A model generated the notes under the pieces. It was not told the DNA's origin. It saw only the letters and a program-made list of their open reading frames with translations, and made no database searches. A program made the translations under genes and the position numbers. Below are positions 37,873-59,615 of a DNA stretch of 64,000 bases, piece by piece. Position 1 is the stretch's first letter. Each line of letters begins with the position of its first letter. The stretch is from positions 205,197 through 269,196 of the forward strand of contig JACPGX010000001.1 of assembly GCA_016188865.1 (NCBI GenBank), read 5' to 3'. This stretch comes from Candidatus Nealsonbacteria bacterium (GTDB lineage Bacteria; Patescibacteriota; Minisyncoccia; Minisyncoccales; MHMH01).

Positions 37873-38745
37873 TTATTTAAATTCTCTGATTATGTTATCC
37901 CAGTTGGTTTTTCTGTCAATTGTATGCCAGGGTTGTTTTAATTGAGGCCACTGGGATTCAAAAGTGGCGCGTTCCGTCTGGTAAAAAACGCCAATGGGCA
38001 CTTTGGTATCTTTTTCGTAAGAATAATCCCATTCTCTGACTCTCTCCAGGGCTTGGCTAAAATTGCCAGCATCGTGAGTCTCCTCTAATTTATAAACATT
38101 TTTAGTCAAATAAGGCACTGAATGCTTATGGTAAACAATGCAGGGCTGTAAAATATCAAGAAAGGCAAAACCTTTATGCGTTATGGCTTTTTTCATCAGT
38201 TCTTTTAAATGCGGCCCCTGCAAAGCATAACCCCTGGCCACGAAAGTAGCGCCCAAATCTAAGGCCATAAGTAAGGAATTAATCGGCTTTTCTCCTTGGC
38301 CTAAAGGAGTGGAACCATCAACAAATCCTTTTTCCGTAAGAGCAGTAGCTTGTCCGGTAGTCAAAGCAAAAACCTGATTAGTATGCACCATCATGGTCAT
38401 GTCGGCGTTATACCTGCAAGCGTGAACAAAATGAGAAACGCCTTCGTCAAAAGTATCGCCGTCTCCTCCGAATCCTACCACAGTTAAATCGGGGTTTCCC
38501 AATTTTATTCCTAAACAAACCGGCAAAACCCTGCCATGCAGCCCGTTAAAGCCGTTTAAATTTACGTAGTCAAAAATCTTGCCGTGGCAGCCGATGCCAG
38601 CCACTAAAGAAGTATCTTTGACGCTTATTTTTCCTTCATTGACCAATTCGGCCAGCGCCTCTTTAATTGAGTTCAAAATGCCGAAATTGGGACAGCCGGG
38701 GCACCAGGTATTTATTTCTTTTGTTGTAAAATCTTGCGGAGTCAT
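37873..38745 (-). CDS. korB: 2-oxoacid:ferredoxin oxidoreductase, beta (TPP) subunit
   Basis: WCPGCPNFG and GGDGD. Confidence 0.88.
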   Translation of the reverse strand: MTPQDFTTKEINTWCPGCPNFGILNSIKEALAELVNEGKISVKDTSLVAGIGCHGKIFDYVNLNGFNGLHGRVLPVCLGIKLGNPDLTVVGFGGDGDTFDEGVSHFVHACRYNADMTMMVHTNQVFALTTGQATALTEKGFVDGSTPLGQGEKPINSLLMALDLGATFVARGYALQGPHLKELMKKAITHKGFAFLDILQPCIVYHKHSVPYLTKNVYKLEETHDAGNFSQALERVREWDYSYEKDTKVPIGVFYQTERATFESQWPQLKQPWHTIDRKTNWDNIIREFK

Positions 38746-40337
38746 AGTTGATTAATTATATCATCCGGAGTAAACGGCCTCCCGTCGTACTTTAAAATCT
38801 TATTTTTAATCGTAATGCCGGTTTCTTCTTTGATAACATCAGCCAAGGAGCCCGTAACGCTATTTTCTACCAAAACAACCTTCTTGGCCTGCCTGCCGGT
38901 AGGCATGGATTTTTTGATTTCTTTAGCAACTTTTTCTGCCGGGAAAGGTTTTAAATAAGAAATCTGCATAAATCTAAAATTCTTTATTTGGGGTAAGGCA
39001 TCTAGAATCGCGCCCTTAGTTGAACCGTGACTAATAAGCAAATTACTTCCTTTGCCATAAACAGAAATCGGATTTAATTTATCAATCTCTTTTTTAAGAT
39101 AAGGCAATTTTTTAAATCTTTTATCCTGCATTTTAACTGCCCCAGCAGAATCTTCAATGGTATAGCCATATTCATTATGCTCATAGCTATTTGCCCTAAC
39201 CACAAAGTTGCCTTGTCCCGGAACAGCTCTTGGAGAAATGCCATTCGGCGTTAAAGCATAGGGCCTGTAATCTTCCTGCGGATTTTCCACGATAAAGCGA
39301 TCAATCGGCAAAGATGACTTTGCTATTTCATCAAAAGTATAATTGCTTTCAGCCAAATGCTTATCCGATAAAAGAATAACGGGGATTCTATATTTATTGG
39401 ACAGATAAAAAGCCTCCTGGGTTCTGATCACGGCCTCTTGTGCGTCACCCGGAGATAAAACCACCCTCAAAAATTCCCCATGTCCGGCGTTTAAAGCGAA
39501 CTTCAAATCTCCCTGACCAGTATGGGTAGCTAATCCGGTTGCAGGAGCCGGCCTCTGCCCTAAATAAATTACCAAAGGAAGTTCGGTCATAGCTGCCAAG
39601 CTCAATCCTTCGGTCATTAAAGCAAAACCGCCGCCCGAAGTCCCGACCATAGCTTTAGCTCCCGCGAATGAAGCCCCCAAGGCGGCATTAATAACTGCAA
39701 TTTCATTTTCCGGCTGAAAAACCAAGATATTATTTTCCAGCTGCCTCTTGGCCAAAAAATGGAGCACGGGACTAGCCGGAGTCATGGGATAAGCTAAATA
39801 AATATCCATGCCAGCGGCTATTGCTCCAATGCCTATGGCTTCCGTGCCGGAAATAAAACACTTAGGTTTTAATTTTTTAAGTTTTTCTTTTTCAGAGTCC
39901 AATTGATAACCCTCTTGAATTGATTTTTTTACCAAGTCGGCGTTTTTACCGAATGTTTTTTCTGCGGCTGCAAAAAGAATATTTAAATCCACTCCGAAAT
40001 ATTTGAAAAGCAGGCCGATTAGAATATTGTTAGCTAAAATTTTCGGCTCCGTTTCTTTGGCTTTAAAAACCAAACCGCTTTGTTTTAAATCTTTCTTGTG
40101 AATATCAACTGTTTTTTGGTCTAAAGCCAAAATAAAATCATATTTATATTCGTGGGAATAAACCGGCTTATCAGAAATTTTCAGAATATTAAAATTATGC
40201 CCTCCCCTGATTAAGGAGGGATAATCTCGGTAATTAAAAACGTAATATCCCAAACTAGTAAAAATTTTCCCGACAAAATGCGAGGTAACAGCCGTGCCCA
40301 GCCCCGCCTCCCCGCCGATGAGAATCGTTTTTTGCAT
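38742..40337 (-). CDS. korA: 2-oxoacid:ferredoxin oxidoreductase, fused gamma-alpha subunit
   Basis: Gamma-like N-terminus GEAGLG, then alpha-subunit YPMTPAS. Start trimmed to MQKTILIGG (ATG 40335-40337). Confidence 0.85.
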   Translation of the reverse strand: MQKTILIGGEAGLGTAVTSHFVGKIFTSLGYYVFNYRDYPSLIRGGHNFNILKISDKPVYSHEYKYDFILALDQKTVDIHKKDLKQSGLVFKAKETEPKILANNILIGLLFKYFGVDLNILFAAAEKTFGKNADLVKKSIQEGYQLDSEKEKLKKLKPKCFISGTEAIGIGAIAAGMDIYLAYPMTPASPVLHFLAKRQLENNILVFQPENEIAVINAALGASFAGAKAMVGTSGGGFALMTEGLSLAAMTELPLVIYLGQRPAPATGLATHTGQGDLKFALNAGHGEFLRVVLSPGDAQEAVIRTQEAFYLSNKYRIPVILLSDKHLAESNYTFDEIAKSSLPIDRFIVENPQEDYRPYALTPNGISPRAVPGQGNFVVRANSYEHNEYGYTIEDSAGAVKMQDKRFKKLPYLKKEIDKLNPISVYGKGSNLLISHGSTKGAILDALPQIKNFRFMQISYLKPFPAEKVAKEIKKSMPTGRQAKKVVLVENSVTGSLADVIKEETGITIKNKILKYDGRPFTPDDIINQL

Positions 40338-40543
40338 AATACAACTAATTCCTATATTACCACTTTTCTTCCAAAATAAAAAGTGTGCGACACTCGGTGT
40401 CGCACGCTTATATTTCAACCCACGAAGTTGAAGATTTTACGAAAATTGTGCTTTATCGTGGCAGCAGCCGTTATCAAGCAATACGAGTATTTTCTTTTAC
40501 AATACTAGTGTTATGAGTTGTTCAAAATATTTTACATAAACCG

Positions 40544-44299: not shown

Positions 44300-44330
44300 A
44301 ATATAAAACCTCGGTTAAAAACCGAGGTTT
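44300..44330 (-). terminator. Terminator of the dehydrogenase/OFOR operon
   Basis: aaacctcgg-loop-ccgaggttt followed by UUUUAU. Confidence 0.7.
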
Positions 44331-44339: not shown

Positions 44340-44364
44340 ATGTAACGGGTCGTACCCGTTACAT
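44340..44364. repeat. Hairpin atgtaacggg-tcgta-cccgttacat (copy 2 of 2, perfect)
   Basis: Abuts the stop codon of the dehydrogenase gene. Confidence 0.8.
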
Positions 44365-45563
44365 TATCTTAAAATTTGAGCGAGATAAATTTTTTCTTCG
44401 GCTAGCATGTCAGCTACTATATTGGTAGGCAGATTAAGCCTTTTCGAGTACCAGAAAACTTTCATTAAATTAGGAAAAATACTTTCCAGTTTTTCCTGCA
44501 CCCTTACTTCACTGTAGCCATCGGGGTGTCTTTCATCATCAACATTTATTAAGCCCCCGGCATTAATAACATAATCTGGCGCGTAAAGAATTCCTTTTTT
44601 CATCAATAGTTTACCGGCAACAGAATCCTGCAGCTGGTTGTTAGCAGCGCCAGCCACAATCCGGCACCTTAAATTAGAGACAGTCTGTTTAGTGAGAATG
44701 CCCCCAGCGGCGCAGGGAGCAAAAATATCGCATTCTTGAGAAAAAATTTCTTCTTGAGCCACTACTTTGCTTAATTTCTTAAATTCCCCAAGCGCTTTCT
44801 CTTTAAGCTCTTCCTGAAAATGAGCTATCCTTCTCGGATCGATATCTGAGCCAATAATTTGCTTTACTCCTTCTTGATATAAAAATTCAGCCAATCGATA
44901 GCCGACTTTTCCTAAACCCTGAATGGCGACAGTTTTGCCTTCCAGCGGCCCCATATTCAAAAACCTTAAACAGGCTTTCATTCCGTAAACAATCCCCCGG
45001 GCAGTAACTGGTGATGGATCACCGCTGCCGCGCAATTTCCCGTAGCGATAGGTTTCCGGCAAGCCTGCCACAAAAGAAGTTTTCATCCTCATTAAACGAA
45101 CATCCTGCTCGTCAATATTCATATCTTCGCCGCCAATATATTCGCCTCTCAAGGCTTCAATTTCTTCCGCCAATTCCCATAGGAGAAAGTTGGTTTTATC
45201 TTCTCTAGGATTGCCCCAAACCACGCATTTGGCTCCGCCTTTTTTAATGCCAGCTATAGCTGCTTTATAAGTCATGGCTTTGGAAAGGCGAAGAACGTCG
45301 GTAATCGCCTCTTTTTCGTCTCGATATTGGAGCATACGGATTCCGCCGAGAGCCTGTTCCGCAATGGCTCGATTGTGAATGGCGATGGCCGTTTTTAATT
45401 TCACTTCGGGATGATAAAATAAATAAATTCTTTCGTGGCCCTCTTTTCTCATTACTTCGGCGATCCATTCCGCTTCTGGATAAGGCACTAAATCTGGCCG
45501 AACCTCAAGCTTTCTCTGGCTATTTTCCAGCATCCTTTCAAAGACGCCATTATTTTCTCCCAT
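44364..45563 (-). CDS. Glu/Leu/Phe/Val dehydrogenase family, leucine/valine-dehydrogenase-like
   Basis: GGIRM, KKGGAKCVV, and Rossmann motif GLGKVG. Own promoter TTGACA-16-TAGATT at 45613-45640. Confidence 0.85.
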   Translation of the reverse strand: MGENNGVFERMLENSQRKLEVRPDLVPYPEAEWIAEVMRKEGHERIYLFYHPEVKLKTAIAIHNRAIAEQALGGIRMLQYRDEKEAITDVLRLSKAMTYKAAIAGIKKGGAKCVVWGNPREDKTNFLLWELAEEIEALRGEYIGGEDMNIDEQDVRLMRMKTSFVAGLPETYRYGKLRGSGDPSPVTARGIVYGMKACLRFLNMGPLEGKTVAIQGLGKVGYRLAEFLYQEGVKQIIGSDIDPRRIAHFQEELKEKALGEFKKLSKVVAQEEIFSQECDIFAPCAAGGILTKQTVSNLRCRIVAGAANNQLQDSVAGKLLMKKGILYAPDYVINAGGLINVDDERHPDGYSEVRVQEKLESIFPNLMKVFWYSKRLNLPTNIVADMLAEEKIYLAQILR

Positions 45564-45680: not shown

Positions 45681-46604
45681 CTAAGCTTGGGACTTTATTA
45701 AAGATAGTTTTTTAAGATAGTCCATTTGAGAATCAACACTTTTTTGAATTTCAGAAATTTTTTCTTTGATTAAATGCCTAAACCTTCCTTGCAGCCTTAA
45801 ATAATCATCAACGGGAATCTTATCGGGCATTTTGTTAATCACATATTTTTTCCCGCCAAAAACTTCGTAAAGCGGAAAAACTCTGGAAGCTACAGCTAAT
45901 CTTGATATTTCAATCGATAGATTTTCCGATAAGCGCCAGCCAGTCGGGCAAGGGGTAAACAAATGAATGAATCTGAAGCCCTGAATGTCTTTGGCTTTTC
46001 TGACTTTTTCCCGCAAATCATCAAGAAAAGCAACTGCTGCCGTAGCTACATAAGGAACGCCGTGGTCAGCCAAAATCCTTACGATATCCTTTTTAGCATC
46101 TTTCTTGCCTTCGGTTGTCACGGTTGTCCACGCTTCCCTGGGAGTGGAACCAGACTGCTGAATTCCCGTATTCATATAAGCTTCATTATCGTGGCAAAAG
46201 ACAAGAATATTTTCATTGCGGGTTGCTGCAGCCGATAAAGAACCAAAACCGATATCAAATGCGGCTCCGTCGCCCATCCATGGGACGACTAAAGCGTCCT
46301 GAATGCCGTAACAATCGAGCGCCATTCTCAAGCCGGTCGCCCTGTCAGGCGCTGACATGAATAAGCTGGCCATGTCAAACACTTTTTCAGCGTTTGCTTC
46401 AAAGCTGGCGCAAACGCTTTTGCAGGAAGCCGGAGTGACAAAAATAATGATCTTTTTCTTACTTTCCCCGAGCGAAGTCGAGGGGTCTTCAGCCAAAACG
46501 CTTAAAACTTGGCGCAACAATACAGGTTCTGCACAGCCCGGGCAAAAAGAATGTCCGGGCCAAAGCATTTCTTCTGCAGGTTTTGCATAAATTTGTTCTG
46601 GCAT
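45681..46604 (-). CDS. 2-oxoacid:ferredoxin oxidoreductase beta (TPP) subunit, second OFOR
   Basis: CPGCAE and GDGAAFDIG. Confidence 0.88.
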   Translation of the reverse strand: MPEQIYAKPAEEMLWPGHSFCPGCAEPVLLRQVLSVLAEDPSTSLGESKKKIIIFVTPASCKSVCASFEANAEKVFDMASLFMSAPDRATGLRMALDCYGIQDALVVPWMGDGAAFDIGFGSLSAAATRNENILVFCHDNEAYMNTGIQQSGSTPREAWTTVTTEGKKDAKKDIVRILADHGVPYVATAAVAFLDDLREKVRKAKDIQGFRFIHLFTPCPTGWRLSENLSIEISRLAVASRVFPLYEVFGGKKYVINKMPDKIPVDDYLRLQGRFRHLIKEKISEIQKSVDSQMDYLKKLSLIKSQA

Positions 46605-46606: not shown

Positions 46607-47746
46607 TTAACTCCTCCAGCGAATCATTCGAGGATTGTCTGATTTAAGAGCGTCTTCGATGTCTTCAACAATGTGCTCTGGTCTGATATCTTTGCCGCCC
46701 ATGCCGCGGATATAGTTAAAAATGGGAATATTTGAATTATACATAGCTGATTCAATCTCTTGGGCAAAAATTCCTTTGGCTCCATAACTCATCGACCTGT
46801 CAAAAACCGCAATTTTCTTACCCTTAGACAGCCAATATCTTAAAGCTGTTGAGGGAAATGGCCTAAACAAACGAAGCTTTAACAGGCCAACCCTATCGCC
46901 GTACAAATCAACCGCCTCTTTGGCAATGGAAGCAGTAATGCCTGCTGCCACTAAAATTAATTCCTGTTTTGGTTGAATCTTGTAGGGCATTACCAGACGA
47001 TAATTTCTGCCAAAAGATTTATTGAATGCAACCATTACTTGCTTGATTATTTTCGGAGCTGACCGCATTGCTTCAAAAAGCCTCTGGCTATGAACCGGCG
47101 TGCGCGAAGAGCCACTGAAAACATAAGGGTCATCCGGATTCAAGGGCAAGAGAGTATTTACGGGCGGTAAAAATCCGTCAATTGCTTCCTGACTAGGAAT
47201 ATCGATTATTTCCGATAAATGCGAAAGAATAAATCCTTCATAGCAGACCATCGCCGGGATTTTTACAGTTTCAGTTATTTTAAAAGCCTGCAAAACAGTA
47301 TCAAAAACTTCCTGAACGTCTTCGCAATATAATTGAATCCAGCCGGTGTCTCTTTGCGACAAACTATCCTGAAAATCAGGCCAAATATTCCAAGGCAAAC
47401 CTAGAGAACGATTGGCTACGGCTAAAACAACGGACGCTCTTTCTTTAGCTGCCGAATGCATAGACTCGCTCATTAAAGTCAAACCGTGCGAGCTGGTAGC
47501 GGTCATAACTCTCAGTCCGAGAAGGGCAGCTCCAACGCAAGCTTCCATTGCCGCATGCTCATTATACATCCAGCGGGTTTGCGACCCGCTCTCTCCGAGA
47601 AACTCTATGAGTTTTTCAACCGCTCCCGTACTTGGAGTAATGCAGTAATTCGGTGAAGCTTGGACTCGGGCAGCAAAACCAGCCAAAGCAACAGCGGTAT
47701 TGCCGTCTAAAAGCATTTTTTTACCGAGCATTTCACTCGCCTTCAT
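46607..47746 (-). CDS. 2-oxoacid:ferredoxin oxidoreductase alpha subunit, second OFOR
   Basis: GNTAVALAG..ITPST. Start set to MKASEM, preceded by GGAGGAAGAAA. Confidence 0.88.
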   Translation of the reverse strand: MKASEMLGKKMLLDGNTAVALAGFAARVQASPNYCITPSTGAVEKLIEFLGESGSQTRWMYNEHAAMEACVGAALLGLRVMTATSSHGLTLMSESMHSAAKERASVVLAVANRSLGLPWNIWPDFQDSLSQRDTGWIQLYCEDVQEVFDTVLQAFKITETVKIPAMVCYEGFILSHLSEIIDIPSQEAIDGFLPPVNTLLPLNPDDPYVFSGSSRTPVHSQRLFEAMRSAPKIIKQVMVAFNKSFGRNYRLVMPYKIQPKQELILVAAGITASIAKEAVDLYGDRVGLLKLRLFRPFPSTALRYWLSKGKKIAVFDRSMSYGAKGIFAQEIESAMYNSNIPIFNYIRGMGGKDIRPEHIVEDIEDALKSDNPRMIRWRS

Positions 47747-49244
47747 TTTCTTCCTCCATAACAATCACTCCCCTCGGGCATTCTTTGGCGCAAATACCGC
47801 AGCCCTTGCAGTAATCATAATCAACAATGTATGGTTTTTTTGCATTGCCGGTTTTTTTAACAGCCGGTTCCGGGCAAAAATTAAAACAATTTTCGCATTC
47901 GCGGCAAAGTCCGCAAGAAAAGCATCTTTTAACCTCTTTTTTCAAATCAATTTTTCTTGGCTGTGGTTCAAAATAAGCAAAGTTAATGCTGTCGCGGTTA
48001 ATCCTGATTTTTGGCTTAGCCCGAAGATGCGGCTTTCCATTCAGAAAGTTAATAATCTTTCTGGCGCTTTCTTTGCCGGAATTAATAGCTTGAGCAACTG
48101 TTTTAGGCCCCAAAAGGAAATCGCCTCCGGTAAACAAATAAGGTTTTTGGCCCTTAACAATCTTTTCCCAAAATGGCGATTTTTCCTGGCCGACGGCAAA
48201 AATTAAAAGATCGCATTCGTCCGTGAAATTAGAAATTGGCGACTGAAATTCTACAGTTAATCTTGGGGTATTCTCTGAAATTTTTACCGGCAGAGCCAAC
48301 GGCCGAAATTCAGCCCCGGCTTGCCGGGTTTTCTCAATTTCCTGCTGGCTGGCTTTCGCTTTATCGCCCCGATAAAAAATTGATGCTTTCGCCCCAAGTT
48401 GCAAAGCCACTCGAGAGCAGTCCATGGCTGTGTTGCCGGCGCCGACAATAAATACGGTTTTATCGACTAATGGCGCTATATCTCCGTAAGTTGCTTTTTT
48501 CAAAAAATCAATGGCAGTTATAACGCCTGCTTGACGAACTCCGGGAATATCCAGCGTTTTGCCAAAAGTAAATCCGGGCGCCAAAAAAATAGCTGAAAAT
48601 TCTTTTTCTATTTCTTTGAAATTATTTTCAGTAATTTCAGTATCAAGACGAAAATCAATTCCCTGAAAATGAAGGATCAGTTCCCTGTCAAGAATTTCTT
48701 TGGGCAGACGGTCTTCGGGAATGCCATACCTTAAAAGTCCGCCTAATTTGCTCTCTTTTTCAAAAACTGTAACAAAGTATCCTTTCAATCTTAAAGAATA
48801 AGCGCAGGTGAGGCCGGCAGGGCCGGAACCTACTATTGCCACTTTTTTATCTTTAGCAACAGCCGGGAAATCAATATGAAATTTGCTCTTTATTGCCAAG
48901 TCGCCTAAAAACTTTTCAGTCTGGCTAATAGCAACAGGCGTATCGAAATCTTTGCGCAAAAAAGCGCAGCCTTTCTCGCAAAAAGCAGGGCAAACTCTGG
49001 AAACAGAAGCCGGCAAAGGATTTTGCAAGAGCAATTTGCGCATAGCTGTTTTAGGGTTTTTATCCTTAAGACTTGCCAGCCAGCCTCTGATATCTTGATG
49101 AATCGGGCAGGAAATCATGCAGAGTGAGATAGTCTCTGTCTCCTGCAAATATCTCGGCTTTTGCTTTAATTCAGCATCGCGCCAAGAACCGGTTTTCCTG
49201 GAAAGAGTATTTTCTCTAAAAATAGGCCTTTCAATTTCAGTCAT
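47733..49244 (-). CDS. Fusion of a GltD-like NAD(P)H-dependent FAD/FeS oxidoreductase with a 2x[4Fe-4S] ferredoxin (OFOR delta) domain
   Basis: N-terminal Cys clusters, VAIVGSGPAGL and VGAGNTAMD, then a C-terminal CFSCGLCRECENC..CP and CKGCGICAKECP. Confidence 0.8.
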   Translation of the reverse strand: MTEIERPIFRENTLSRKTGSWRDAELKQKPRYLQETETISLCMISCPIHQDIRGWLASLKDKNPKTAMRKLLLQNPLPASVSRVCPAFCEKGCAFLRKDFDTPVAISQTEKFLGDLAIKSKFHIDFPAVAKDKKVAIVGSGPAGLTCAYSLRLKGYFVTVFEKESKLGGLLRYGIPEDRLPKEILDRELILHFQGIDFRLDTEITENNFKEIEKEFSAIFLAPGFTFGKTLDIPGVRQAGVITAIDFLKKATYGDIAPLVDKTVFIVGAGNTAMDCSRVALQLGAKASIFYRGDKAKASQQEIEKTRQAGAEFRPLALPVKISENTPRLTVEFQSPISNFTDECDLLIFAVGQEKSPFWEKIVKGQKPYLFTGGDFLLGPKTVAQAINSGKESARKIINFLNGKPHLRAKPKIRINRDSINFAYFEPQPRKIDLKKEVKRCFSCGLCRECENCFNFCPEPAVKKTGNAKKPYIVDYDYCKGCGICAKECPRGVIVMEEENEGE

Positions 49245-49245: not shown

Positions 49246-49806
49246 TTACGCCTCCTTTAAAGGTTGAGCCAGCTCATAAGCTTCCTTGGTCGCCTCAATG
49301 TTTTCTTTTTTATATGCCGGAATTTTTTCTTGAATAATCTCTATTAAATCAGCGAGACTAAAAAGATTGGTCATTTTAGCAAAGGCTCCCAGCATGATGG
49401 TATTTAACCTATTCAAGTTATGATATCTGGCAATGGCTGAAGCATTAAATGCCACTACTCTGTAGCCGGGGTATAAACGAGATAAATCTTGAGATGTCTT
49501 GCGGCTGTTAACAATCAAACAACCCGAAGGCTTCAAATTATCTTTCAAATCCCTGGTCTTTAAAAGATCTGCTCCTAAAACTATGAAATAGTCGGCTTGC
49601 TTTATTTGGCACTTCAATCGTATGGGTTTTGAATCAGATCTGACGAAGCCTTCGACCGGTTGACCAATTCTTTCTGAACCAAAAAAGGGGAAACACTGAA
49701 GGCTGTATTCTTTATCACCTAACGCCCTAAAAAGAGCCTCGGCTAAAATTTCTGAAGCTAACCTAGTGCCTTTTCCGCCGCGCCCAAAAATCGTTATTTC
49801 TATCAT
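49246..49806 (-). CDS. 2-oxoacid:ferredoxin oxidoreductase gamma subunit, second OFOR
   Basis: IFGRGGKGTRLASEILA. Confidence 0.85.
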   Translation of the reverse strand: MIEITIFGRGGKGTRLASEILAEALFRALGDKEYSLQCFPFFGSERIGQPVEGFVRSDSKPIRLKCQIKQADYFIVLGADLLKTRDLKDNLKPSGCLIVNSRKTSQDLSRLYPGYRVVAFNASAIARYHNLNRLNTIMLGAFAKMTNLFSLADLIEIIQEKIPAYKKENIEATKEAYELAQPLKEA

Positions 49807-50576: not shown

Positions 50577-50607
50577 AAAACTGACGAGAACCGTTCTCGT
50601 CAGTTTT
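50577..50607. repeat. REP-3 hairpin, 3'-flank copy (aaaactgacgagaac-c-gttctcgtcagtttt)
   Basis: Ends one base before the RAYT-3 stop codon. Preceded by a partial duplicate, ctgacgaaaa. Confidence 0.9.
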
Positions 50608-51333
50608 TTATTCGATGGCAACACGTTGAGAATCAGCTAATTCTTTTTTGAACTGAAGCCAATCGTTAACGAATCTTTGCCCTTCGCCCGCTCCGCCGAC
50701 TGTTTCAAATAAAAACTCTCTGCTGGTTACTGAAGGAAAATTCCTCTTGCCTAAATAGTCAGAATAACTTGACCATCGGTAATTTTCTAAAAATTCTATT
50801 ATTTCTTGCAATTTCCTGCCGCTAATTCCCCTTTCCTTCCAATTCTGAACTAAAATTGCCACTGGGTTTGTATGAATATAAACGAAAACTGTTATTAATT
50901 GTTTATCATCTTTAACGTGGACTATTTTATATTTTCCCTGAAACAGGTGGCCACTTCTTTTATATTTTTTATTATAATATCCGCCGTATCCCGCCCCAAT
51001 TTTTCTCATAAACTTGCTTATTCCTCCATTTCTTAACTGTCTTACCAGCAGATGCGCGTGATTCGGCATCAAACAAAACGCTAAAATCTCCAATAAACAT
51101 TCCCTGCCCGTATGTCTTTTATACGAACTATCTAAACTGACGAGAACGGTTCTCGTCAGTTTTTGTTCTTGACGATAGTATGAAGAAGTAGGTTTTTCAT
51201 CATTGAATTCAAATAAATCATGAATCATTCTAAAATAATCTTTTTGATCTTTGAAAAGCTTTAACCCTTCTACGGCTCTAATAACGATGTGATAAATTTC
51301 GCCGTTTACTAATGGTGGTCGTTTTATTGGCAT
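50608..51333 (-). CDS. REP-associated tyrosine transposase-like protein (IS200/Y1 HUH family), paralog 3
   Basis: GEIYHIVIRA, FCLMPNHAHLLV, VYIHTNP. Confidence 0.85.
   Translation of the reverse strand: MPIKRPPLVNGEIYHIVIRAVEGLKLFKDQKDYFRMIHDLFEFNDEKPTSSYYRQEQKLTRTVLVSLDSSYKRHTGRECLLEILAFCLMPNHAHLLVRQLRNGGISKFMRKIGAGYGGYYNKKYKRSGHLFQGKYKIVHVKDDKQLITVFVYIHTNPVAILVQNWKERGISGRKLQEIIEFLENYRWSSYSDYLGKRNFPSVTSREFLFETVGGAGEGQRFVNDWLQFKKELADSQRVAIE
51134..51162. repeat. REP-3 hairpin, internal in-frame copy (centre g)
   Basis: aaactgacgagaac-g-gttctcgtcagttt, translated KLTRTVLVSL. Confidence 0.9.
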
Positions 51334-51401: not shown

Positions 51402-52733
51402 TTAGCTCGGGGCTTTTGTTGCTTTTGCCAAAGCTTTTTCAAACTTGGCTACAATTTTATCTATATCATCTTTAGTTACAATTAATGGAGGCAGAAAACG
51501 GATAATGGGATTCCTTTGAGCGTGACCGGCAGCCAAAGGAAGAATGCCTTGCTCCACACATTCTTGAAGCACCGCGTTTCTCGAGGCAGGATTCGGTCCG
51601 CCCGATTCATCAACAAATTCTACTCCAACCATCAGCCCCATCCCCCGCACATCTCCAATAAAATGATTCTTAATTCCTTTCAACTTCTCAATAAAATATG
51701 CGCCATTTTCTGCAGCTCTCTTAATCAATTTTTCTTCTTCGAGTACTTCAAGGGTTGCTTTCGCAGCTGCCCAGCCAAGCGGCCCTCCGCCAAATGTGGT
51801 TGAATGTCGACCGGCTCGGGAAAAATCCCAATCCCGCGGAAAAACAATAGCTCCAATGGGAACGCCCGAACCAAGCTTCTTGGCTAAACAAATGATATCG
51901 GGTATTGCGGCGAAATGTTCAATCGCAAACATCTTGCCAGTTCTGCCCAAGCCAGTTTGCACTTCATCAGCGACTAAAGCCCAGTCATATTTCTGGCAAA
52001 GACGGTGAAGATCGTGTATTGCTAAGAGACTGGGTACGACGAATCCGCCCTCTCCCTGAATCGGCTCTATAATCACCCCGTTTATTTCGTCAGGATCACA
52101 AAATCGACCGAGATACTCTTGCTCAATAAAACGAATGCAGAGTTGGGCGCAATCTTCCGGCTTTTTCTCGTAAGCGCAATGCCGACAATCAGGATATGGC
52201 AAATGAATCACATCAAGAGCTTTGGGAAAATCTCTCTTATGCAATGATTTACTGGAAGCCACATCCAGCGCATAGCCGAATCTGCCGTGAAAGGCGCCGA
52301 GAAAACTGATAAATTTCTTTCGCTGCGGCCTGCGGTCAATTAAAAGTTTTATTGCAGCATTATTCGCTTCACCGCCCGAGGAGCAAAAATAAACTCGCCA
52401 ATCTCTTTCAGGAAAACTATTATGAGTTATTCTCGCCAATTTCTCAGCTGCCTCAACTTGGGAAGAATTGTAAACATCGGTGCCTATGCAGGCCATTAAC
52501 TTATCTGCTTGCTGTTTTACCGCTTCCACAACTTTAGGATGGCAATGCCCGATGTCAGCGATGCTTACTTGGGTAAAACAATCAATAAATTTATTGCCGT
52601 CGGCATCCCAGACATAAATGCCTTTTCCCCTTTCAACTGTTACGGGAAAATTTATATCGTGAGTAGTTGTCGCCAAAACTTCCTTATGCCTTGCAATCAA
52701 CCCCAATGTTTTAGAGCCGGGAATCTCTTTCAT
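51402..52733 (-). CDS. Class III PLP aminotransferase (4-aminobutyrate/omega-amino-acid type)
   Basis: DEVQTGLGRTGKMFA. Confidence 0.88.
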   Translation of the reverse strand: MKEIPGSKTLGLIARHKEVLATTTHDINFPVTVERGKGIYVWDADGNKFIDCFTQVSIADIGHCHPKVVEAVKQQADKLMACIGTDVYNSSQVEAAEKLARITHNSFPERDWRVYFCSSGGEANNAAIKLLIDRRPQRKKFISFLGAFHGRFGYALDVASSKSLHKRDFPKALDVIHLPYPDCRHCAYEKKPEDCAQLCIRFIEQEYLGRFCDPDEINGVIIEPIQGEGGFVVPSLLAIHDLHRLCQKYDWALVADEVQTGLGRTGKMFAIEHFAAIPDIICLAKKLGSGVPIGAIVFPRDWDFSRAGRHSTTFGGGPLGWAAAKATLEVLEEEKLIKRAAENGAYFIEKLKGIKNHFIGDVRGMGLMVGVEFVDESGGPNPASRNAVLQECVEQGILPLAAGHAQRNPIIRFLPPLIVTKDDIDKIVAKFEKALAKATKAPS

Positions 52734-52846
52734 CTTTTACCTCCTGTTGCATTGTCAAATAACTCATTTTATCTAAACACGCTAACAAAAAACTTGCAAG
52801 AAAAACAAAAAGAGCCCTTCGATAAACTCAGGACTCTTTTTTATTT

Positions 52847-53983
52847 TTACTTTAAAAATTTTCTTGAAAGAACTTCCAGCTGGACTTCGGAGGCGCCTTC
52901 ATAAAGAGTTAAAGCTCTGGCGTCGCGGAACATTCTCTCAACCGGAGTTTCATCCATGTAGCCCATGCCGCCGTGAATCTGTAAAGCGTCATAAGTTATT
53001 TTCTGAACCATCTCGGTGGCAAACCATTTGGCTCTGGCTGCAGCCAATTTGACATCATGGCCTTGGTCTTTTTGCCAGGCAGCATACCAGGTAAGCCAAC
53101 GGCTGGCTTCAATTTGGGCTTCCATTTTAGCTAATTTATGCTGGCAATCTTGAAGATCAATCAATCTCTTGCCAAACATCTGACGATTTCTGGCGTAGTT
53201 TACGGCTTCTTCAAAAGCGCCTTGAGCTATACCTACGGCTTGGGCCGCGATATTGATTCTGCCGCCATTTAAAGTCTGCATAGCCACTTTCCAGCCGTCG
53301 CCTTCCTGGCCAAGCATATTGGCATGGCTGACTTGGCAGTCAGTCAAAACTATCGGGGAAGTCGGCGAACAGTGAAGCCCCATTTTCTTTTCAATTTTCG
53401 GCACTGAAAATCCCGGAGTGGAAGTTTCCACGATGAAAGCGGAAAGCCCATGATGAGGATGATCGCTGGTTCTGGCTATTAAAACGCAAACTTTCGCTTT
53501 AGCGACATTGGTAATGAATTGCTTGGTACCATTAATCACCCAACCATTATCATTTCTTACAGCCCGAGTTTTGATTCTCGTCACATCAGAGCCGGCATCC
53601 GGCTCTGTTAAAGCATAACATCCCAATGCCTTGCCTTGAGCCAAAGAAGCAAGATATTTCTTTTTTTGATCTTCATTGCCCCACTCCAAAATGGGAGCTC
53701 CGGATAAGGAATTATTGGCTGACATAATCAAAGCAAGCGAAGCCCAAACTCTGGCCAACTCTTCTTCGGCAATGGCATAAGCTAAAATATCCGAGCCCAT
53801 GCCGCCGTACTGCTCTGGAACAAATATACCCATAAAGCCCATTTCGCCGAGTTTTTCAACAAGCTCTTTGGGAAATTTTCCTTTTTCTTCAAATTCTTTA
53901 ATCCTTGGCCTGACTTCTTTTTCGGCAAATTCTCTCATCAAGTTGCGGATACCCGCATGCTCTTCCGACAACCGAAAATCCAT
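52847..53983 (-). CDS. Acyl-CoA dehydrogenase
   Basis: YALTEPDAGSD, and QIHGGMGY..YEGASEVQ. Confidence 0.93.
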   Translation of the reverse strand: MDFRLSEEHAGIRNLMREFAEKEVRPRIKEFEEKGKFPKELVEKLGEMGFMGIFVPEQYGGMGSDILAYAIAEEELARVWASLALIMSANNSLSGAPILEWGNEDQKKKYLASLAQGKALGCYALTEPDAGSDVTRIKTRAVRNDNGWVINGTKQFITNVAKAKVCVLIARTSDHPHHGLSAFIVETSTPGFSVPKIEKKMGLHCSPTSPIVLTDCQVSHANMLGQEGDGWKVAMQTLNGGRINIAAQAVGIAQGAFEEAVNYARNRQMFGKRLIDLQDCQHKLAKMEAQIEASRWLTWYAAWQKDQGHDVKLAAARAKWFATEMVQKITYDALQIHGGMGYMDETPVERMFRDARALTLYEGASEVQLEVLSRKFLK

Positions 53984-53994
53984 TTCCGCCTCCC

Positions 53995-55914
53995 TTATAA
54001 AGATTTCTCTATCAATTCCAGCAAGTCAATCACTGAAATCTCTTCGCCCTGTAGCATTTGCAGACACCAGGGACAGCTGACCGCCGCTATATTGGCTTCC
54101 GTTTCCTTAGCATCTTTAAGGCGCAGTTGGTTAACTCTTTTTTGAGGATCTTCCTCTTGCCACATTCTGCCGCCGCCTCCGCCGCAGCATAAACTTTGTT
54201 TTTTGGAACGCTTCATTTCAACTATTTTTTCAGCGCAAACGGCTTTTAGAATTTCTCGGGGAGCTTCAAAAATACCATTATAACGGCCAAGATAGCAAGA
54301 ATCATGATAGGTTATTTTACCAGATATTTTCTTGCTTACTTTAAGTTTTCCTTCTTTGATGAGCTTGGCTATGAATTCGGTGTAATGATAAACTGCGAAA
54401 TCAGCGCCAAAATCAGGATATTCATTTTTTAAAGTATTAAAGCAGTGAGGGCAAGCGGTAATAATTTCTTTCACGCCGTAACGATTCAAAATTTCAATAT
54501 TCTTTTTGGCCAATTCCTGAAATAAATATTCGTTGCCCATTCTTCTTGCCGGGTCCCCGCAGCAAAGCTCTTCAGAGCCAAGTATGCCGAAGTTAACCCC
54601 GGCTTTTTCCAATATTTTAACCAGAGAAACAGCTGCTTTGGTATTCTGCTCATTCAAAGCCGCGGTGCAGCCGACCCAGTAAAGAACATCTATTGCTCTA
54701 TCTGAAGAAAGCGTTTTGACCTTTAAATCCTTTGCCCAATCAGTTCTTGAAAGATTGGTTCCCCTCCAAGGATGTCCCCGGGCCTCAATGCTTTCCAAGG
54801 CTCGCATAGCTGAATCGGGCAACTGGGATTTTTCAAGCACTAAATTGCGCCGCATTTCCACAATTTTATCAATATGGGTATTTAAAACAGGACACTGCTC
54901 TTGGCAGGCGCGGCAGGTAGTGCAAGACCAGAGATCATCTTCCTTAATTGCTCCGCCAATTAAATTATCGTTATTTTGATTCAGCAGAGGCTTTTTTAGA
55001 TTTTGAATCATTTCTTTTGGGTTAAGCGATTTTCCGCTCAAATAGGCCGGACAAGCTTCCTGACAGCGGCCGCAGACAACGCAGGCGTAAAGATCGAGCA
55101 GCTGCTTTTGGCTGAAATCTTCAATCTTTGCCGCGCCGAAAGTTTCCGTATTTTCCAAATCAAGAGTTTCCAGGGCCCCTTTGGGCCGTGAACTTTTCAG
55201 AAAAATATTGAGAGGGCCGGCTAAAATGTGAAGATATCTGGAATAAGCTATGAAAACCAAAACGAACAAAACCGTCAGCCAATGCGCCCAGAAAAAAGTC
55301 ATGTTGGCTATTGCCAGCGCGGACAAGCTGAAATCCTTAAAAAAATAACTTAGGGCTGAACTAAGCGGCGGTAAAAGAGTGCTTTCGCTGGTAGCTTCTT
55401 TCAGTAAATGCGTTACGGGATGCAGAAAAACTGTGACTAAGATAATCAATGCCTCAAAAGTCTGCTCTCCTTTAAGCCGAGGCGGTCGCACAACATATCT
55501 TCGCAGAATTCCCCAAAGGGCTGCCAGCATGATAAAAGGAGCTGCCATGTCCATCACCCAAGAGTAGTAAAAGAAAAGCTTGGTGTTTTCCATTGCTCCT
55601 GACAAACCGAAGCCTGCTCCGATGATGATATATAGAAAATAATATCCGACAAAAATCAGAAATCCCCATGCCATAAAAATATGGCCGAGGCCGGCTCTGT
55701 CTTTCAGAGATATGGACTTTAACTGGCGCCATTGCCCGACAAGATAAGCTAAAACAAGCAATATCCTTTTGAGCGCGCTATTCTTTAAGTTATGATTTTC
55801 TTTCTTACCCCGGCTCAAAAAACCGTAGAGCCGGTATATTCTGAAAAAGAAAAGGCCGAAAGCTATCAGGGTCAAACCCCAGAAAAAAATATAGAACATC
55901 GAATCCCTCCGCAT
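53995..55914 (-). CDS. Membrane FeS oxidoreductase (HdrD/GlpC-like: TM domain + 2x[4Fe-4S] + two CCG domains)
   Basis: About 5 N-terminal TM segments, CVVCGRCQEACP, CTTCRACQEQCP, and CCG motifs. Confidence 0.8.
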   Translation of the reverse strand: MRRDSMFYIFFWGLTLIAFGLFFFRIYRLYGFLSRGKKENHNLKNSALKRILLVLAYLVGQWRQLKSISLKDRAGLGHIFMAWGFLIFVGYYFLYIIIGAGFGLSGAMENTKLFFYYSWVMDMAAPFIMLAALWGILRRYVVRPPRLKGEQTFEALIILVTVFLHPVTHLLKEATSESTLLPPLSSALSYFFKDFSLSALAIANMTFFWAHWLTVLFVLVFIAYSRYLHILAGPLNIFLKSSRPKGALETLDLENTETFGAAKIEDFSQKQLLDLYACVVCGRCQEACPAYLSGKSLNPKEMIQNLKKPLLNQNNDNLIGGAIKEDDLWSCTTCRACQEQCPVLNTHIDKIVEMRRNLVLEKSQLPDSAMRALESIEARGHPWRGTNLSRTDWAKDLKVKTLSSDRAIDVLYWVGCTAALNEQNTKAAVSLVKILEKAGVNFGILGSEELCCGDPARRMGNEYLFQELAKKNIEILNRYGVKEIITACPHCFNTLKNEYPDFGADFAVYHYTEFIAKLIKEGKLKVSKKISGKITYHDSCYLGRYNGIFEAPREILKAVCAEKIVEMKRSKKQSLCCGGGGGRMWQEEDPQKRVNQLRLKDAKETEANIAAVSCPWCLQMLQGEEISVIDLLELIEKSL

Positions 55915-55966
55915 GTATTTTCAAAGTACCGCATCTAATGACTTCTAACACGAAGAAAAAACTCGG

Positions 55967-55996
55967 TCAACAAAAAAGGACGCTAGGCGTCCTTTG
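55967..55996 (-). terminator. Terminator/-35 cassette, copy 1 (caacaaaaaaggacgctaggcgtcctttg)
   Basis: On the minus strand this reads AAAGGACGC-CUA-GCGUCCUUUUUU, followed directly by GTTGAC. Confidence 0.75.
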
Positions 55997-56004
55997 GTTA
56001 TTGT

Positions 56005-56163
56005 TCATCTTTTAACCGGAACGGGCACTTTTTCGGGCATTGGCGTTTTTTCCGGTACGGGGCTCGAAGGCTCCGGTTTGGTTCTGGGAACTCTTCTGGG
56101 AATTCTTACCGGTTCTTCTGTAGGAATAGTTTCCCTACGGTTATTTTCTGCGGAATCAAGCAT
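56005..56163 (-). CDS. Pro-rich 52-aa ORF (not in the supplied ORF track)
   Basis: AGGAGG lies 6 nt upstream of ATG 56161-63. The ATG overlaps the upstream stop (AATGCTTGA). Terminator lies 10 nt downstream. Confidence 0.4.
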   Translation of the reverse strand: MLDSAENNRRETIPTEEPVRIPRRVPRTKPEPSSPVPEKTPMPEKVPVPVKR

Positions 56164-57517
56164 TTTCTTCCTCCTTTTTTTGCTGATAACGCTTTTGGTA
56201 TTCTACGCTTTGGTCTGGAAAATTTTTGTAATCTATGAAAGGCTCTCTTTCTTGGTCTGGAGGCAAAAATTCAGAACAAATCTTTTTGCCTTCCAAAACT
56301 AAACGGATATCAGTGGCCTTATCAACAACCAATCTTTGCACTTCGCGAATAAACTTATTGCCCAGAGGAACATTACCTTCATCGGCTTCCCTTTGAAGAA
56401 TAACTGCCTCAATTTTCCTAAGGTAGGGCAAAAGCCGAGACCAGGAATTGTCTATTGCATATAAATCATTTAACCATTCTTTGTCAGGGTAAAGGCATTC
56501 TTCTAAAAGATACTTAAGGGATTCTTTTCTGGCCAAATTGTATTTTTCCTGTCCGGGAATCTCATAAATAGCTTCGGGATTAAGCAGGGAGTTAAACTTT
56601 CTTAAAATTTGTACCAATTCCGCTTCAAAATTTTCGTACAGCGAAATGATAGTTGAATGAACTGGCGTCACGTTAAGCGAGCTTCTTTCTGGCTGGGGAT
56701 ATTTCCAGTAAGCAGTGGTTAAAAGCAAGCCCAAATTAAGATATTGCAAAAAATAAATCAATTGAGCCAAGTTTCCCTGGCTTATTTCCGGAGATACATG
56801 GAAAAGATAATCAATCCGATGCCGAGCTATATTAATTTCATTCAATGCTTTAACTTCTGCGCCCCTGATGACTAAGCCGTAAGAAGCTCCATGGTCTCTT
56901 TTGGGCACATCTTTAAATGTTGTAAAATGATCGAGGTTAACAGAAATAATAAACAAAGCTAAGGCAATAAACTTGGCGCGATGCTGATATTTATTAAAAC
57001 CAGTATCAAAACCAACTGATATTTGTATTTCGCCTGCCTTAATGAGCCTTGCTTTTATTTGGCTGGCCAATGCTTGGGAATCGACTGTCGGCTGAAAACA
57101 GTGCTTTTCTCTTCCTTGGCCGGGATAAATTTTAGCCCCTAAAGTCACAAAAGATAAAAGCTGCCGGCTATTATTTAGAGAAGAAAATATGATTGAACCT
57201 GGCCAGTAAGGCGAATTAGCTAAAGCTTGGGCTGCTGCCTCACGGACACCAGGGTCTGGATCATATTTTGAGGCCTTCTTTAATGACGGGATTGCTTCCA
57301 GAGAGCCGATTACTCCCAAGGCCTCGGCTGCTTTCTCGCGGACAAAATAATACTGATCTGTTTCCAAAACTTCGATTAAAGCTTTGGTTGCTTCCGAAGA
57401 GCCGATTACTCCCAAGGCCTTAGCTGCTTCGTAACGGCTAAAATTATCTCCCTTGTTTAATTGATGCAAAAGACTTTTAATACTGGCCTTACTCGCCTTT
57501 TCTTTCTTATTTTCCAT
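56156..57517 (-). CDS. HEAT-repeat (PBS-lyase type) protein with ~330-aa unknown C-terminal domain
   Basis: Repeated AAxALGVIGSxEA units. Start trimmed to MENKKEK, because the longer ORF runs through its own promoter. Confidence 0.65.
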   Translation of the reverse strand: MENKKEKASKASIKSLLHQLNKGDNFSRYEAAKALGVIGSSEATKALIEVLETDQYYFVREKAAEALGVIGSLEAIPSLKKASKYDPDPGVREAAAQALANSPYWPGSIIFSSLNNSRQLLSFVTLGAKIYPGQGREKHCFQPTVDSQALASQIKARLIKAGEIQISVGFDTGFNKYQHRAKFIALALFIISVNLDHFTTFKDVPKRDHGASYGLVIRGAEVKALNEINIARHRIDYLFHVSPEISQGNLAQLIYFLQYLNLGLLLTTAYWKYPQPERSSLNVTPVHSTIISLYENFEAELVQILRKFNSLLNPEAIYEIPGQEKYNLARKESLKYLLEECLYPDKEWLNDLYAIDNSWSRLLPYLRKIEAVILQREADEGNVPLGNKFIREVQRLVVDKATDIRLVLEGKKICSEFLPPDQEREPFIDYKNFPDQSVEYQKRYQQKKEEENA

Positions 57518-57557
57518 CGCCGTCATTCCTCCACAAATTTCAATGTACTCTAATAAC

Positions 57558-57586
57558 TTAATAGCACTAAGGGAAAACCCGGTCAA
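57558..57586 (-). promoter_or_regulatory. Promoter TTGACC-17-TATTAA
   Basis: The -35 box directly follows the REP-3-like hairpin. Confidence 0.6.
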
Positions 57587-57590
57587 CAAA

Positions 57591-57621
57591 AAAACTGACG
57601 AGAACCATTCTCGGCAGTTTT
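57591..57621. repeat. REP-3 hairpin, solo degenerate copy (two mismatches) acting as a terminator
   Basis: aaaactgacgagaac-c-attctcggcagtttt. Confidence 0.8.
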
Positions 57622-57670
57622 AATTATTTATAAAGGCACTCTAAAATTCATTTAAGGAGGGTTGCTACTG

Positions 57671-57958
57671 CTACCACCCAGAGTTGCTGCTGCTACTACC
57701 CCAAAAATAAACGTCACTAAGTTTTATTATTACGAAGGATATAAGACTGCTAAAAAAAGAAATGCCTCCGACGAATATTATGATATTACTTATGTTATGG
57801 AGAAGTTCGCTCTGGAACATGAACCTTAATACTGCGCCCACACCAATCAGGAATACATTTGAAAATATCAAGATATAAAATATCTTATCTATCTTCTTGT
57901 TCATCCTCTTATAGTTCTCGTAAATTTGCCGTGATTCTTCATCAATTTCATGGGCCAT
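57671..57958 (-). CDS. Small 2-TM membrane protein (95 aa)
   Basis: AAGGAGGTG RBS. Promoter TTGACA-17-TAAGAT at 58004-58032. Confidence 0.6.
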   Translation of the reverse strand: MAHEIDEESRQIYENYKRMNKKIDKIFYILIFSNVFLIGVGAVLRFMFQSELLHNISNIIIFVGGISFFSSLISFVIIKLSDVYFWGSSSSNSGW

Positions 57959-58041
57959 ATTATATTCACCTCCTTTTTAATGTGCCGCATAATTATAGAG
58001 TACATCTTAGTTCAACGCAAAAAATCTGTCAAGACATCGTA

Positions 58042-58087
58042 TTACGAGACCCGGACTCGTAAAAAATTACGAGTCCGGATCTCGTAA
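58042..58087. repeat. Inverted REP doublet (REPIN-like): ttacgag-acccgga-ctcgtaa / ttacgag-tccggat-ctcgtaa
   Basis: The two hairpins are reverse complements of each other apart from one base. Their stems equal the REP-2 stem. Confidence 0.8.
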
Positions 58088-58104
58088 AACTAGCGGAAAC
58101 CGAA

Positions 58105-58134
58105 ACAACAAAAAAGGACGCTAGGCGTCCTTTG
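58105..58134 (-). terminator. Terminator cassette, copy 2
   Basis: Hairpin identical to copy 1. The -35 part is degenerate (TTGTTG). Confidence 0.7.
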
Positions 58135-58185
58135 ATTGTTTATTCTACTGATCGAGAGTATTTGGCGGCCTTTTGTTTTTACCCT

Positions 58186-59605: not shown

Positions 59606-59615
59606 AACTGCCTCC

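Follow-up and report, generated by a model that had tools for sequence, protein, structure and literature searches.

A stretch of 64,000 nucleotides of a genome labelled Candidatus Nealsonbacteria (Patescibacteria; contig JACPGX010000001.1, positions 205,197 to 269,196), referred to below as the window, contains an operon for a 2-oxoacid:ferredoxin oxidoreductase (OFOR) in which the place of the small delta ferredoxin is taken by a 503-residue protein, here called X. Three parts were recognized in this protein. These are: (i) the N-terminal arm of an OFOR delta subunit (residues 1-38), (ii) a circularly permuted NfnB-like cassette (residues 39-445) and (iii) the ferredoxin domain of a delta subunit (residues 446-503). 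By its arm, its ferredoxin domain and its operon position X belongs to the delta family; the cassette lies within the GltD/NfnB superfamily, but departs from the canonical order of its Cys motif and lacks the features specific to NfnB.

Delta arm, permuted cassette and ferredoxin domain

The X gene is read from an ATG through 503 codons without interruption. A Shine-Dalgarno sequence (AAGGAGG) is located 6 nt upstream of its start, within the 3' end of the gamma-subunit gene, the stop of which is separated from the X start by 1 nt. Pfam searches revealed Fer4_20 at residues 41-120 (57.1 bits, threshold 25.8; only profile positions 31-111 covered), Pyr_redox_2 at 133-357 (74 bits, threshold 26.1) and a 4Fe-4S dicluster at 447-496, and the PorD/KorD models of NCBIfam were matched at 439-499 (PorD_Arch with 63 bits and TIGR02179 with 55.9 bits, the curated cutoff of the latter being 60.05). 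The PorD structure 9bt4_G aligns with residues 446-497. The flavin body carries a flavin adenine dinucleotide (FAD) motif, GSGPAG (residues 139-144; 48813-48830), and a nicotinamide adenine dinucleotide (phosphate), NAD(P)H, motif, GAGNTA (residues 268-273; 48426-48443).

A first-pass annotation, made from the sequence alone, had described a 503-residue frame in a gamma / X / alpha / beta operon, the first ~420 residues of which were GltD/NfnB-like, with N-terminal Cys clusters and two dinucleotide-binding motifs, and were fused to a C-terminal 2x[4Fe-4S] delta domain. The frame, the operon, the dinucleotide-binding motifs and the C-terminal domain were all recovered in the present analysis, and the family assignment holds as well, with Fer4_20 and Pyr_redox_2 above their gathering thresholds and with the structural matches given below. 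Three details had to be revised: the GltD-like part extends from about residue 39 to 445, the N-terminal Cys motif is incomplete (five Cys are present and the other two are found at positions 441 and 444), and the GltD-like and delta parts, which do share one chain, are not joined end to end, the cassette being inserted into the delta subunit.

The insertion became visible at the N-terminus. The T-G-x-W ... P pattern of the arm, which we took to resemble the N-termini of PorD proteins, prompted a profile test, in which the N-terminal 89 residues of the homolog P0024 matched positions 12-53 of the VorD model PRK09623 (E 1.7e-6). When the arm of P0024 was joined to its ferredoxin domain, the TIGR02179 score rose from 63.4 to 94.9 bits (profile coverage from 26-78 to 6-78) and the PRK09623 score from 53 to 99.5 bits (profile positions 12-105 of 105). 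With the same joining in X of the window, TIGR02179 went from 57.7 to 65.7 bits and so passed its cutoff, and PorD_Arch gained as well (58.9 to 74.7 bits). Arm residues T18, G19, W21 and P30 are invariant, as is R22 in a 16-sequence alignment. X thus shares with PorD/VorD delta subunits (TIGR02179; 9bt4_G) the place between gamma and alpha, the N-terminal arm and two CxxCxxCxxxCP motifs, and without the insert it matches their models over nearly the full length; unlike them, it is interrupted by a flavin/iron-sulphur (FeS) cassette of ~410 residues and has two extra Cys before the first ferredoxin motif. A head-to-tail fusion of GltD and delta is ruled out by the delta arm at the N-terminus.

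The permutation was recognized from the Cys residues. The canonical GltD/NfnB motif C-x2-C-x4-C-x3-CP (RCLQCPTHPCVSGCP in 4ylf_B) is cut down in X to C42-x3-C46-P, and the C-terminal part contains ten conserved Cys, not eight, the extra pair being found in E437-x2-R440-C441-F-S-C444-G. In the long forms of the protein, such as P0024, this pair is preceded by ER..NF.EV, the usual N-terminal leader of Fer4_20. Moving the segment 420-445 of X before C42 raised the Fer4_20 score from 61.5 bits (profile positions 31-111) to 79.2 bits (11-111), and moving the post-flavin segment of P0024 before its C-x3-CP raised it from 75.3 bits (28-108) to 97.4 bits (1-108). This rearrangement recreates C-x2-C-x4-C-x3-CP; C441 and C444 are the pair of Cys that the N-terminal motif lacks.

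The same order was found throughout the family. In a motif census of the 120 best homologs (retrieved in a search over 5.8 billion protein clusters), the canonical motif was found ahead of the flavin domain in none, C-x3-CP stood there in 115, RCxxCGxCxxCxxCxxxCP followed the flavin body in 117 and the [TS]GxWR arm was present in 110. When 70 homologs were aligned, 14 Cys and E110 of X were invariant and C450 nearly so (>=90%). These 15 conserved Cys and E110 make 16 ligands, the number needed for four [4Fe-4S] clusters. Invariant residues flank every domain junction in both the 16- and the 70-homolog alignments.

AlphaFold 2 (AF2) folds X as one unit, with a predicted local distance difference test (pLDDT) of 92.1 and a predicted template modelling score (pTM) of 0.90. 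Low confidence is confined to residues 1-20, in keeping with an arm that depends on partner subunits, and to the extreme C-terminus. The best sequence matches in the PDB were 9bov_A and 9n5u_A (NfnA of Bfu-type NfnABC; E ~3e-62), followed by 4ylf_B, 5vj7_A and 5jca_L (NfnB, Xfn and NfnI-L) and then by 8oh5_C (StnC), glutamate synthase small subunits and dihydropyrimidine dehydrogenase; for 9bov_A, 9n5u_A, 4ylf_B and 5jca_L the E-values range from 1e-62 to 1e-48. Foldseek gave the same ranking, with query-normalised TM-scores of 0.71-0.72 to Bfu-type NfnA and StnC and target-normalised ones of 0.70 to NfnB (4ylf_B) and 0.71 to 5jfc_L.

In StnC and Bfu-type NfnA a GltD/NfnL-like domain is inserted into a NuoG-like subunit, and its FAD serves as a plain entry or exit site for NADPH and does not bifurcate (PMC10482914; PMC12018979). 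X resembles these proteins (8oh5_C; 9n5u_A, 9bov_A) in that the cassette is inserted into a host FeS protein, and the alignment with 9n5u_A contains the same post-flavin segment ("NFKEVEP...EAQRCMSCG") as the long forms. The permuted cassette thus appears to be a recurring insertable unit. The hosts differ, being a NuoG/Fdh-like subunit of a bifurcating transhydrogenase in the former and an OFOR delta subunit in X, and so does the non-Cys cluster ligand, which is Lys in StnC and Bfu-type NfnA and Glu (E110) in X. An OFOR delta subunit is not named as a host of the cassette in PMC10482914, PMC12018979 or the reviews consulted. With NfnB/NfnL (4ylf_B, 5jca_L) X has in common the Fer4_20 and Pyr_redox_2 fold, the Glu of the proximal cluster and the Arg contacting FAD, and with the stand-alone ferredoxin:NADP+ oxidoreductases of the Cac_0764 type (PMC12221290) the lack of an NfnA partner and of Arg333. 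Unlike both, it carries the leader with the first two Cys behind the flavin body, and the module is embedded in an OFOR subunit.

Distribution of the X family

The 120 best homologs comprise one protein 100% identical to X and 119 cluster representatives, each covering 94-100% of the query; the latter belong to Niyogibacteria, Chloroflexota, Bipolaricaulota, Aminicenantes, WOR-3, Desulfobacterales, Planctomycetes and Firmicutes. When one genome of each GTDB species was scanned, at least 597 relatives were obtained, and the best 80 loci were re-analysed by open reading frame (ORF) calling and phmmer. At 64 of these 80 loci, in at least 10 phyla, the X gene lies beside OFOR subunit genes. The order gamma-alpha-beta-X was found at ~41 of them (Proteobacteria, Actinomycetota), the order of the window, gamma-X-alpha-beta, at ~13, and gamma was fused to X at 6. 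At the 16 loci without OFOR neighbours, 11 of the proteins match the GltD core only and are other proteins.

The fusions of gamma and X, 700-790 residues long, occur in Planctomycetota, Bacteroidota and some Patescibacteria (loci L036, L043, L047, L053, L054 and L055; proteins P0004, P0011, P0013 and P0020) and give a single polypeptide in the order gamma, arm, cassette, ferredoxin domain. At one locus (L085, protein P0019) gamma and X were found without adjacent alpha and beta genes, and M18/M28 peptidases and an oligopeptide transporter adjoin; this leaves two readings, a core encoded in another part of the genome or a gamma-X pair that works with another partner.

The long forms are matched end to end by the NCBIfam model PRK12771 ("NAD(P)-binding protein", 566 positions, cutoff 516), with 558 bits for P0024, 631 for P0096 and 600 for P0104, which means that exactly this architecture is already modelled by NCBI, without a functional name. 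Scores of P0002 (407 bits) and P0009 (484 bits) are below the cutoff, as is that of X itself, and X and these nearest relatives thus form a shortened sub-clade of the same architecture. A single use of PRK12771 was found in the literature searched, as a domain label for hydrogenase typing. The models of YgfK (a putative selenate reductase subunit) and PRK12814 also align across the post-flavin segment of P0024, P0096 and P0104, and a permuted cassette followed by Cys-rich segments may, to judge from these alignments, be present in those families too.

Proposed reaction and competing explanations

The complex containing X is probably a non-bifurcating, ferredoxin-independent 2-oxoacid:NAD(P)+ oxidoreductase of amino-acid catabolism. 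From the features described above we infer an assignment of Cys residues to clusters, an electron path and a direction, together with a class of substrate and a choice between NAD and NADP, as follows. X, as the delta subunit of a four-subunit por/vor-type OFOR, has acquired a permuted NfnB/GltD-like cassette between its arm and its 2x[4Fe-4S] domain; FAD, two [4Fe-4S] clusters and a site for NAD(P)(H) would be housed in this cassette. In the alpha/beta core a 2-oxoacid would be decarboxylated on thiamine pyrophosphate (TPP) with formation of acyl-CoA; the substrate would probably be a branched-chain, aromatic or other aliphatic 2-oxoacid from the co-transcribed amino-acid dehydrogenase of the ELFV family, the likely supplier. 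The two electrons would leave the core singly, with the beta cluster as the first station and the two delta clusters as the next, before passing to a distal cassette cluster (C42, C93, C441, C444) and a proximal one (C46, C85, C89, E110); FAD would then gather both electrons, and NAD(P)+ would be reduced by hydride transfer.

Several observations are consistent with this path. The string of six Cys behind the flavin body ties both a cassette cluster and a delta cluster to one short stretch of chain and thereby speaks for a short internal route. That X replaces the small delta ferredoxin, as had been proposed at first, agrees with the presence of both delta-specific parts in it and with the absence of a ferredoxin-type Cys motif from the rest of the operon; elsewhere in the 64-kb window such a motif was found only in a membrane CCG protein (53995-55914). 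Oxidation of 2-oxoacids with NAD(P)+ is strongly downhill, from about -500 mV to -320 mV. A reaction this exergonic would pull the ELFV dehydrogenase in its unfavourable direction, oxidative deamination, and argues against carboxylation driven by NAD(P)H. There is an in-vitro precedent in trans: NADP+ is reduced with pyruvate by pyruvate:ferredoxin oxidoreductase in combination with ferredoxin and a stand-alone NfnB-like Fnor (PMC12221290).

The wiring of an OFOR to NAD(P)+ is known in principle, with other flavoproteins (PadEFGHI, KorABC and the Euglena enzyme PNO). KorABC of Azoarcus evansii, a 2-oxoglutarate:NADP+ oxidoreductase, is a two-subunit OFOR with an FNR-like KorC, and PNO, the pyruvate:NADP+ oxidoreductase of Euglena and Cryptosporidium, is a single chain with a cytochrome-P450-reductase-like domain. 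The functional idea in these enzymes, NADP+ instead of ferredoxin, is the same as that proposed for X, with the flavoprotein attached as a separate subunit or end to end. The flavoprotein of the Pad system, PadH, probably belongs to a family different from that of the cassette of X. PadEFGHI (NCBIfam NF045762-NF045766), the phenylglyoxylate:NAD+ oxidoreductase of Azoarcus evansii (Hirsch et al. 1998, cited in PMC5109826), is a por-type OFOR in which NAD+ is reduced by way of an additional FAD protein. The subunits gamma, alpha and beta of the X operon are distant homologs of PadE, PadG and PadI, and their scores, 93.6, 207 and 196.5 bits against cutoffs of 300, 700 and 700, led us to reject membership in that system. 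Pad has an ordinary small ferredoxin, PadF (78-position model), as its delta subunit and a flavoprotein that is a subunit of its own, whereas X has both in one chain. A chain of FAD, two GltD-type and two ferredoxin-type [4Fe-4S] clusters and a catalytic site is also found in dihydropyrimidine dehydrogenase (PMC8097209), in which, unlike in X, electrons run from NADPH to an FMN/pyrimidine site, the domains are in canonical order and no TPP chemistry is involved.

Other points weigh against the proposed reaction. Electrons at -500 mV represent energy that is conserved by many anaerobes and wasted when NAD(P)+ is the acceptor, and free ferredoxin might still have access to the distal delta cluster. 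The cluster ligands of X were assigned by motif logic. X of the window is, furthermore, shortened and divergent, matching PRK12771 with 394 bits in two stretches (cutoff 516) and being devoid of the ER..NF.EV leader and of a hairpin of ~20 residues in the NAD(P)H domain. Arg325 of PfNfnI-B, in a YRR motif, is among the residues contacting NADP(H) (PMC12221290); the family has YRRTR, and in X of the window this position is G293, followed by Asp (YRG-D), in a loop where AF2 confidence dips (pLDDT 73, residues 291-300). Nucleotide binding or preference of this particular protein may thus differ from those of the rest of the family. In the literature searched, the coverage of which was incomplete, no biochemical data on any member were found, and a GltD/NfnB-like module within an OFOR delta subunit was neither described nor assayed, in keeping with the first-pass remark that this exact arrangement was not known to be characterised.

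Free ferredoxin could alternatively still be reduced at the delta domain, the flavin module being a side branch that acts as a tethered ferredoxin:NAD(P)+ oxidoreductase; the redox state would then decide how electrons are shared by ferredoxin and NAD(P)+, or NAD(P)H would re-reduce the clusters. We regard this as unlikely, though less so than the other alternatives. The ferredoxin domain of the delta subunit is fully conserved, and a second OFOR of the window, which has no ferredoxin domain, must use a free carrier, suggesting that a ferredoxin or flavodoxin is present somewhere in the organism; stand-alone NfnB-like proteins do work with free ferredoxin (PMC12221290). Against this, neither the operon nor the 64-kb window contains a ferredoxin gene, the six-Cys segment physically links the cassette and delta clusters and makes the internal path the shortest one, and the pTM of 0.90 points to a fixed arrangement.

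The direction of the reaction may also be questioned, and X could be part of an NAD(P)H-dependent 2-oxoacid synthase that carboxylates acyl-CoA reductively and, with the ELFV dehydrogenase, makes amino acids from scavenged short-chain acyl-CoAs in a biosynthesis-poor organism. Such dehydrogenases thermodynamically favour amination, the host is labelled as one of the Patescibacteria, a group of poor biosynthetic capacity, and a gene for an AMP-forming acyl-CoA synthetase-like protein is located nearby (61364-63316). However, NAD(P)H (~-320 mV) cannot drive reductive carboxylation (~-500 mV) uncoupled, no coupling partner is encoded and the neighbouring genes are catabolic (acyl-CoA dehydrogenase, EtfAB, membrane FeS oxidoreductase), which makes a biosynthetic role quite improbable.

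Bifurcation or confurcation, in which electron pairs would be divided or combined at the NfnB-like FAD and a second acceptor or donor besides NAD(P)(H) would be coupled to the oxidation or synthesis of 2-oxoacids, has a marginally smaller chance still. It is suggested by the homology of the cassette to the bifurcating subunit NfnB and by two residues of PfNfnI-B that are kept in X: the invariant E110 aligns (5jca_L) with Glu126, which binds the FAD-proximal cluster as its non-Cys ligand, and the nearly invariant R179 with Arg201, which is placed at the flavin. A third residue, Arg333, is replaced by Ser in X (S299) and by Ile in the family consensus, whereas it is conserved in bifurcating NfnB and is Ser or Thr in simple Cac_0764-type ferredoxin:NADP+ reductases (PMC12221290). 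Bifurcating NfnB proteins are told apart by their long N-terminus, the conserved Arg333 and an nfnA gene that lies immediately upstream (PMC12221290); X has the gamma gene upstream instead, its N-terminus is the delta arm, and no nfnA-like gene and no third electron path were found in its operon. The nearest solved relatives are non-bifurcating, and the X family likewise looks non-bifurcating and of NADP(H) type from its residues. Such a mechanism could, for example, let NAD(P)H and a second redox partner drive 2-oxoacid synthesis, or split 2-oxoacid electrons between NAD(P)+ and ferredoxin; if this improbable reading were true, OFORs with an embedded flavin would form a class of bifurcating enzymes of their own, distributed over many phyla with Patescibacteria among them.

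That X is a product of faulty assembly or sequencing, with two genes run together through, for example, a missed stop or a frameshift, a possibility raised in the first-pass annotation, can practically be dismissed: nothing in its favour was found, the same architecture is present in all 120 best homologs and in dozens of genomes from different phyla, with the fusion conserved in hundreds, the long forms match PRK12771 over its whole length, and delta parts at both ends of X could not result from any simple gene-joining error.

The operon, its surroundings and implications

Coordinates of the operon genes and of the parts of X are given in the table.

Table. Genes of the X operon and parts of X, with positions in the window
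Feature	Position	Strand	Basis
Gene X, 503 residues, OFOR delta with inserted NfnB/GltD-like FAD/NAD(P)(H) cassette	47733-49244	minus	Intact ORF, Pfam, NCBIfam, homologs, AF2
X residues 1-38, N-terminal arm of PorD/VorD-type delta (SRKTGSWR...KPRY)	49131-49244	minus	VorD model PRK09623, TIGR02179 chimeras
X residues 39-122, Fer4_20 part of cassette (C42, C46, C85, C89, C93, E110)	48879-49130	minus	Pfam; alignments to 4ylf_B, 5jca_L
X residues 131-405, flavin body with two dinucleotide-binding domains	48030-48854	minus	Pyr_redox_2, Pyr_redox, NAD_binding_8; Foldseek
X residues 420-445, relocated Fer4_20 leader ending EVKRC441FSC444G	47910-47987	minus	Re-permutation test, motif census
X residues 446-499, 2x[4Fe-4S] ferredoxin domain (C447, C450, C453, C457; C479, C482, C485, C489)	47748-47909	minus	PorD_Arch, TIGR02179, 9bt4_G
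Gamma subunit, PorC/KorC family	49246-49806	minus	PF01558, 96 bits; TIGR02175, 141 bits (cutoff 81)
Alpha subunit, POR_N and PFOR_II	46607-47746	minus	Pfam
Beta subunit, TPP-binding	45681-46604	minus	TPP_enzyme_C; PRK11864, 318 bits
ELFV-family (Leu/Val/Phe/Trp-type) amino-acid dehydrogenase	44364-45563	minus	ELFV_dehydrog, ELFV_dehydrog_N

The genes follow each other in the order gamma, X, alpha and beta, with the ELFV dehydrogenase gene as the last of the unit. The probable start of alpha is an ATG at 47746, behind GGAGG, which gives a 14-nt overlap with the end of X. Promoter and terminator scans returned counts no higher than in shuffled sequence, and the sites near 49880 and at 44306-44330 are only suggestive. 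The best NCBIfam matches of alpha and beta are por/vor models, yet both score under every equivalog cutoff. Across 55 beta subunits of related loci, the TPP motif GDG...DN...N of the beta subunit is conserved and its C21, C24, C61 and C219 are invariant; these Cys are taken to bind its own [4Fe-4S] cluster. The top NCBIfam match of the ELFV dehydrogenase is a Trp dehydrogenase model, below cutoff. A gene of this family follows beta in a Niyogibacteria relative too and precedes gamma in a Bacillota relative (L049); at a second, paralogous Nealsonbacteria locus a 2-hydroxyacid dehydrogenase and a pyridoxal-phosphate enzyme of Cys/Met metabolism adjoin the operon.

Upstream, on the same strand, a catabolic cluster (51402-63316, minus) encodes a class-III aminotransferase, acyl-CoA dehydrogenase, EtfA, EtfB, a MeaB GTPase and the AMP-forming acyl-CoA synthetase-like protein, as well as a HEAT-repeat protein and a 639-residue membrane FeS protein with two CCG domains (HdrD-like). 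The neighbourhood points to amino-acid and 2-oxoacid catabolism, and a set of Etf and membrane oxidoreductase genes is unexpected in a genome labelled Patescibacteria (Nealsonbacteria). The second OFOR (37873-40418, minus) is of the two-subunit type and consists of a gamma-alpha fusion (558 residues) and a beta subunit with PFO_beta_C, with no ferredoxin domain; the genome would thus encode a carrier-dependent OFOR besides the putatively NAD(P)-linked one.

Between the OFOR operon and the aminotransferase / acyl-CoA dehydrogenase cluster, an IS200/Y1-transposase-like ORF of 241 residues was found (50608-51333, minus), followed by a terminator-like hairpin with a 14-bp stem (50577-50607). In a more distant part of the window, a 491-residue NifU_N/IscU-like FeS scaffold protein (4156-5631, minus) is split by an intein that carries a LAGLIDADG homing endonuclease (NifU_N in two stretches, LAGLIDADG_3, Intein_splicing) and adjoined by a class-V aminotransferase (NifS/IscS-like; 5688-6839, minus). 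A 582-residue ORF at 6872-8620 (minus) had no Pfam match at E <= 1e-5.

The architecture of X is common in databases and modelled by NCBIfam, and was not found described in the (incompletely covered) literature. In metabolic reconstructions of genomes and metagenome-assembled genomes, por/vor operons are routinely scored as producers of reduced ferredoxin. If this widespread delta variant sends electrons to NAD(P)+, the predicted redox balance would shift in many lineages, and with it their requirement for hydrogenase or Rnf, their H2 production and the way they conserve energy; these lineages would include Patescibacteria, Bipolaricaulota, Chloroflexota, Planctomycetota and many Actinomycetota and Proteobacteria. 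A ferredoxin-independent 2-oxoacid:NAD(P)+ oxidoreductase would also be an attractive part for pathway engineering such as that in PMC12221290. If the interpretation is correct, the NfnL/GltD-like cassette, already present in Stn and in Bfu-type NfnA, would be a reusable permuted plug-in that links FeS chains to pyridine nucleotides.

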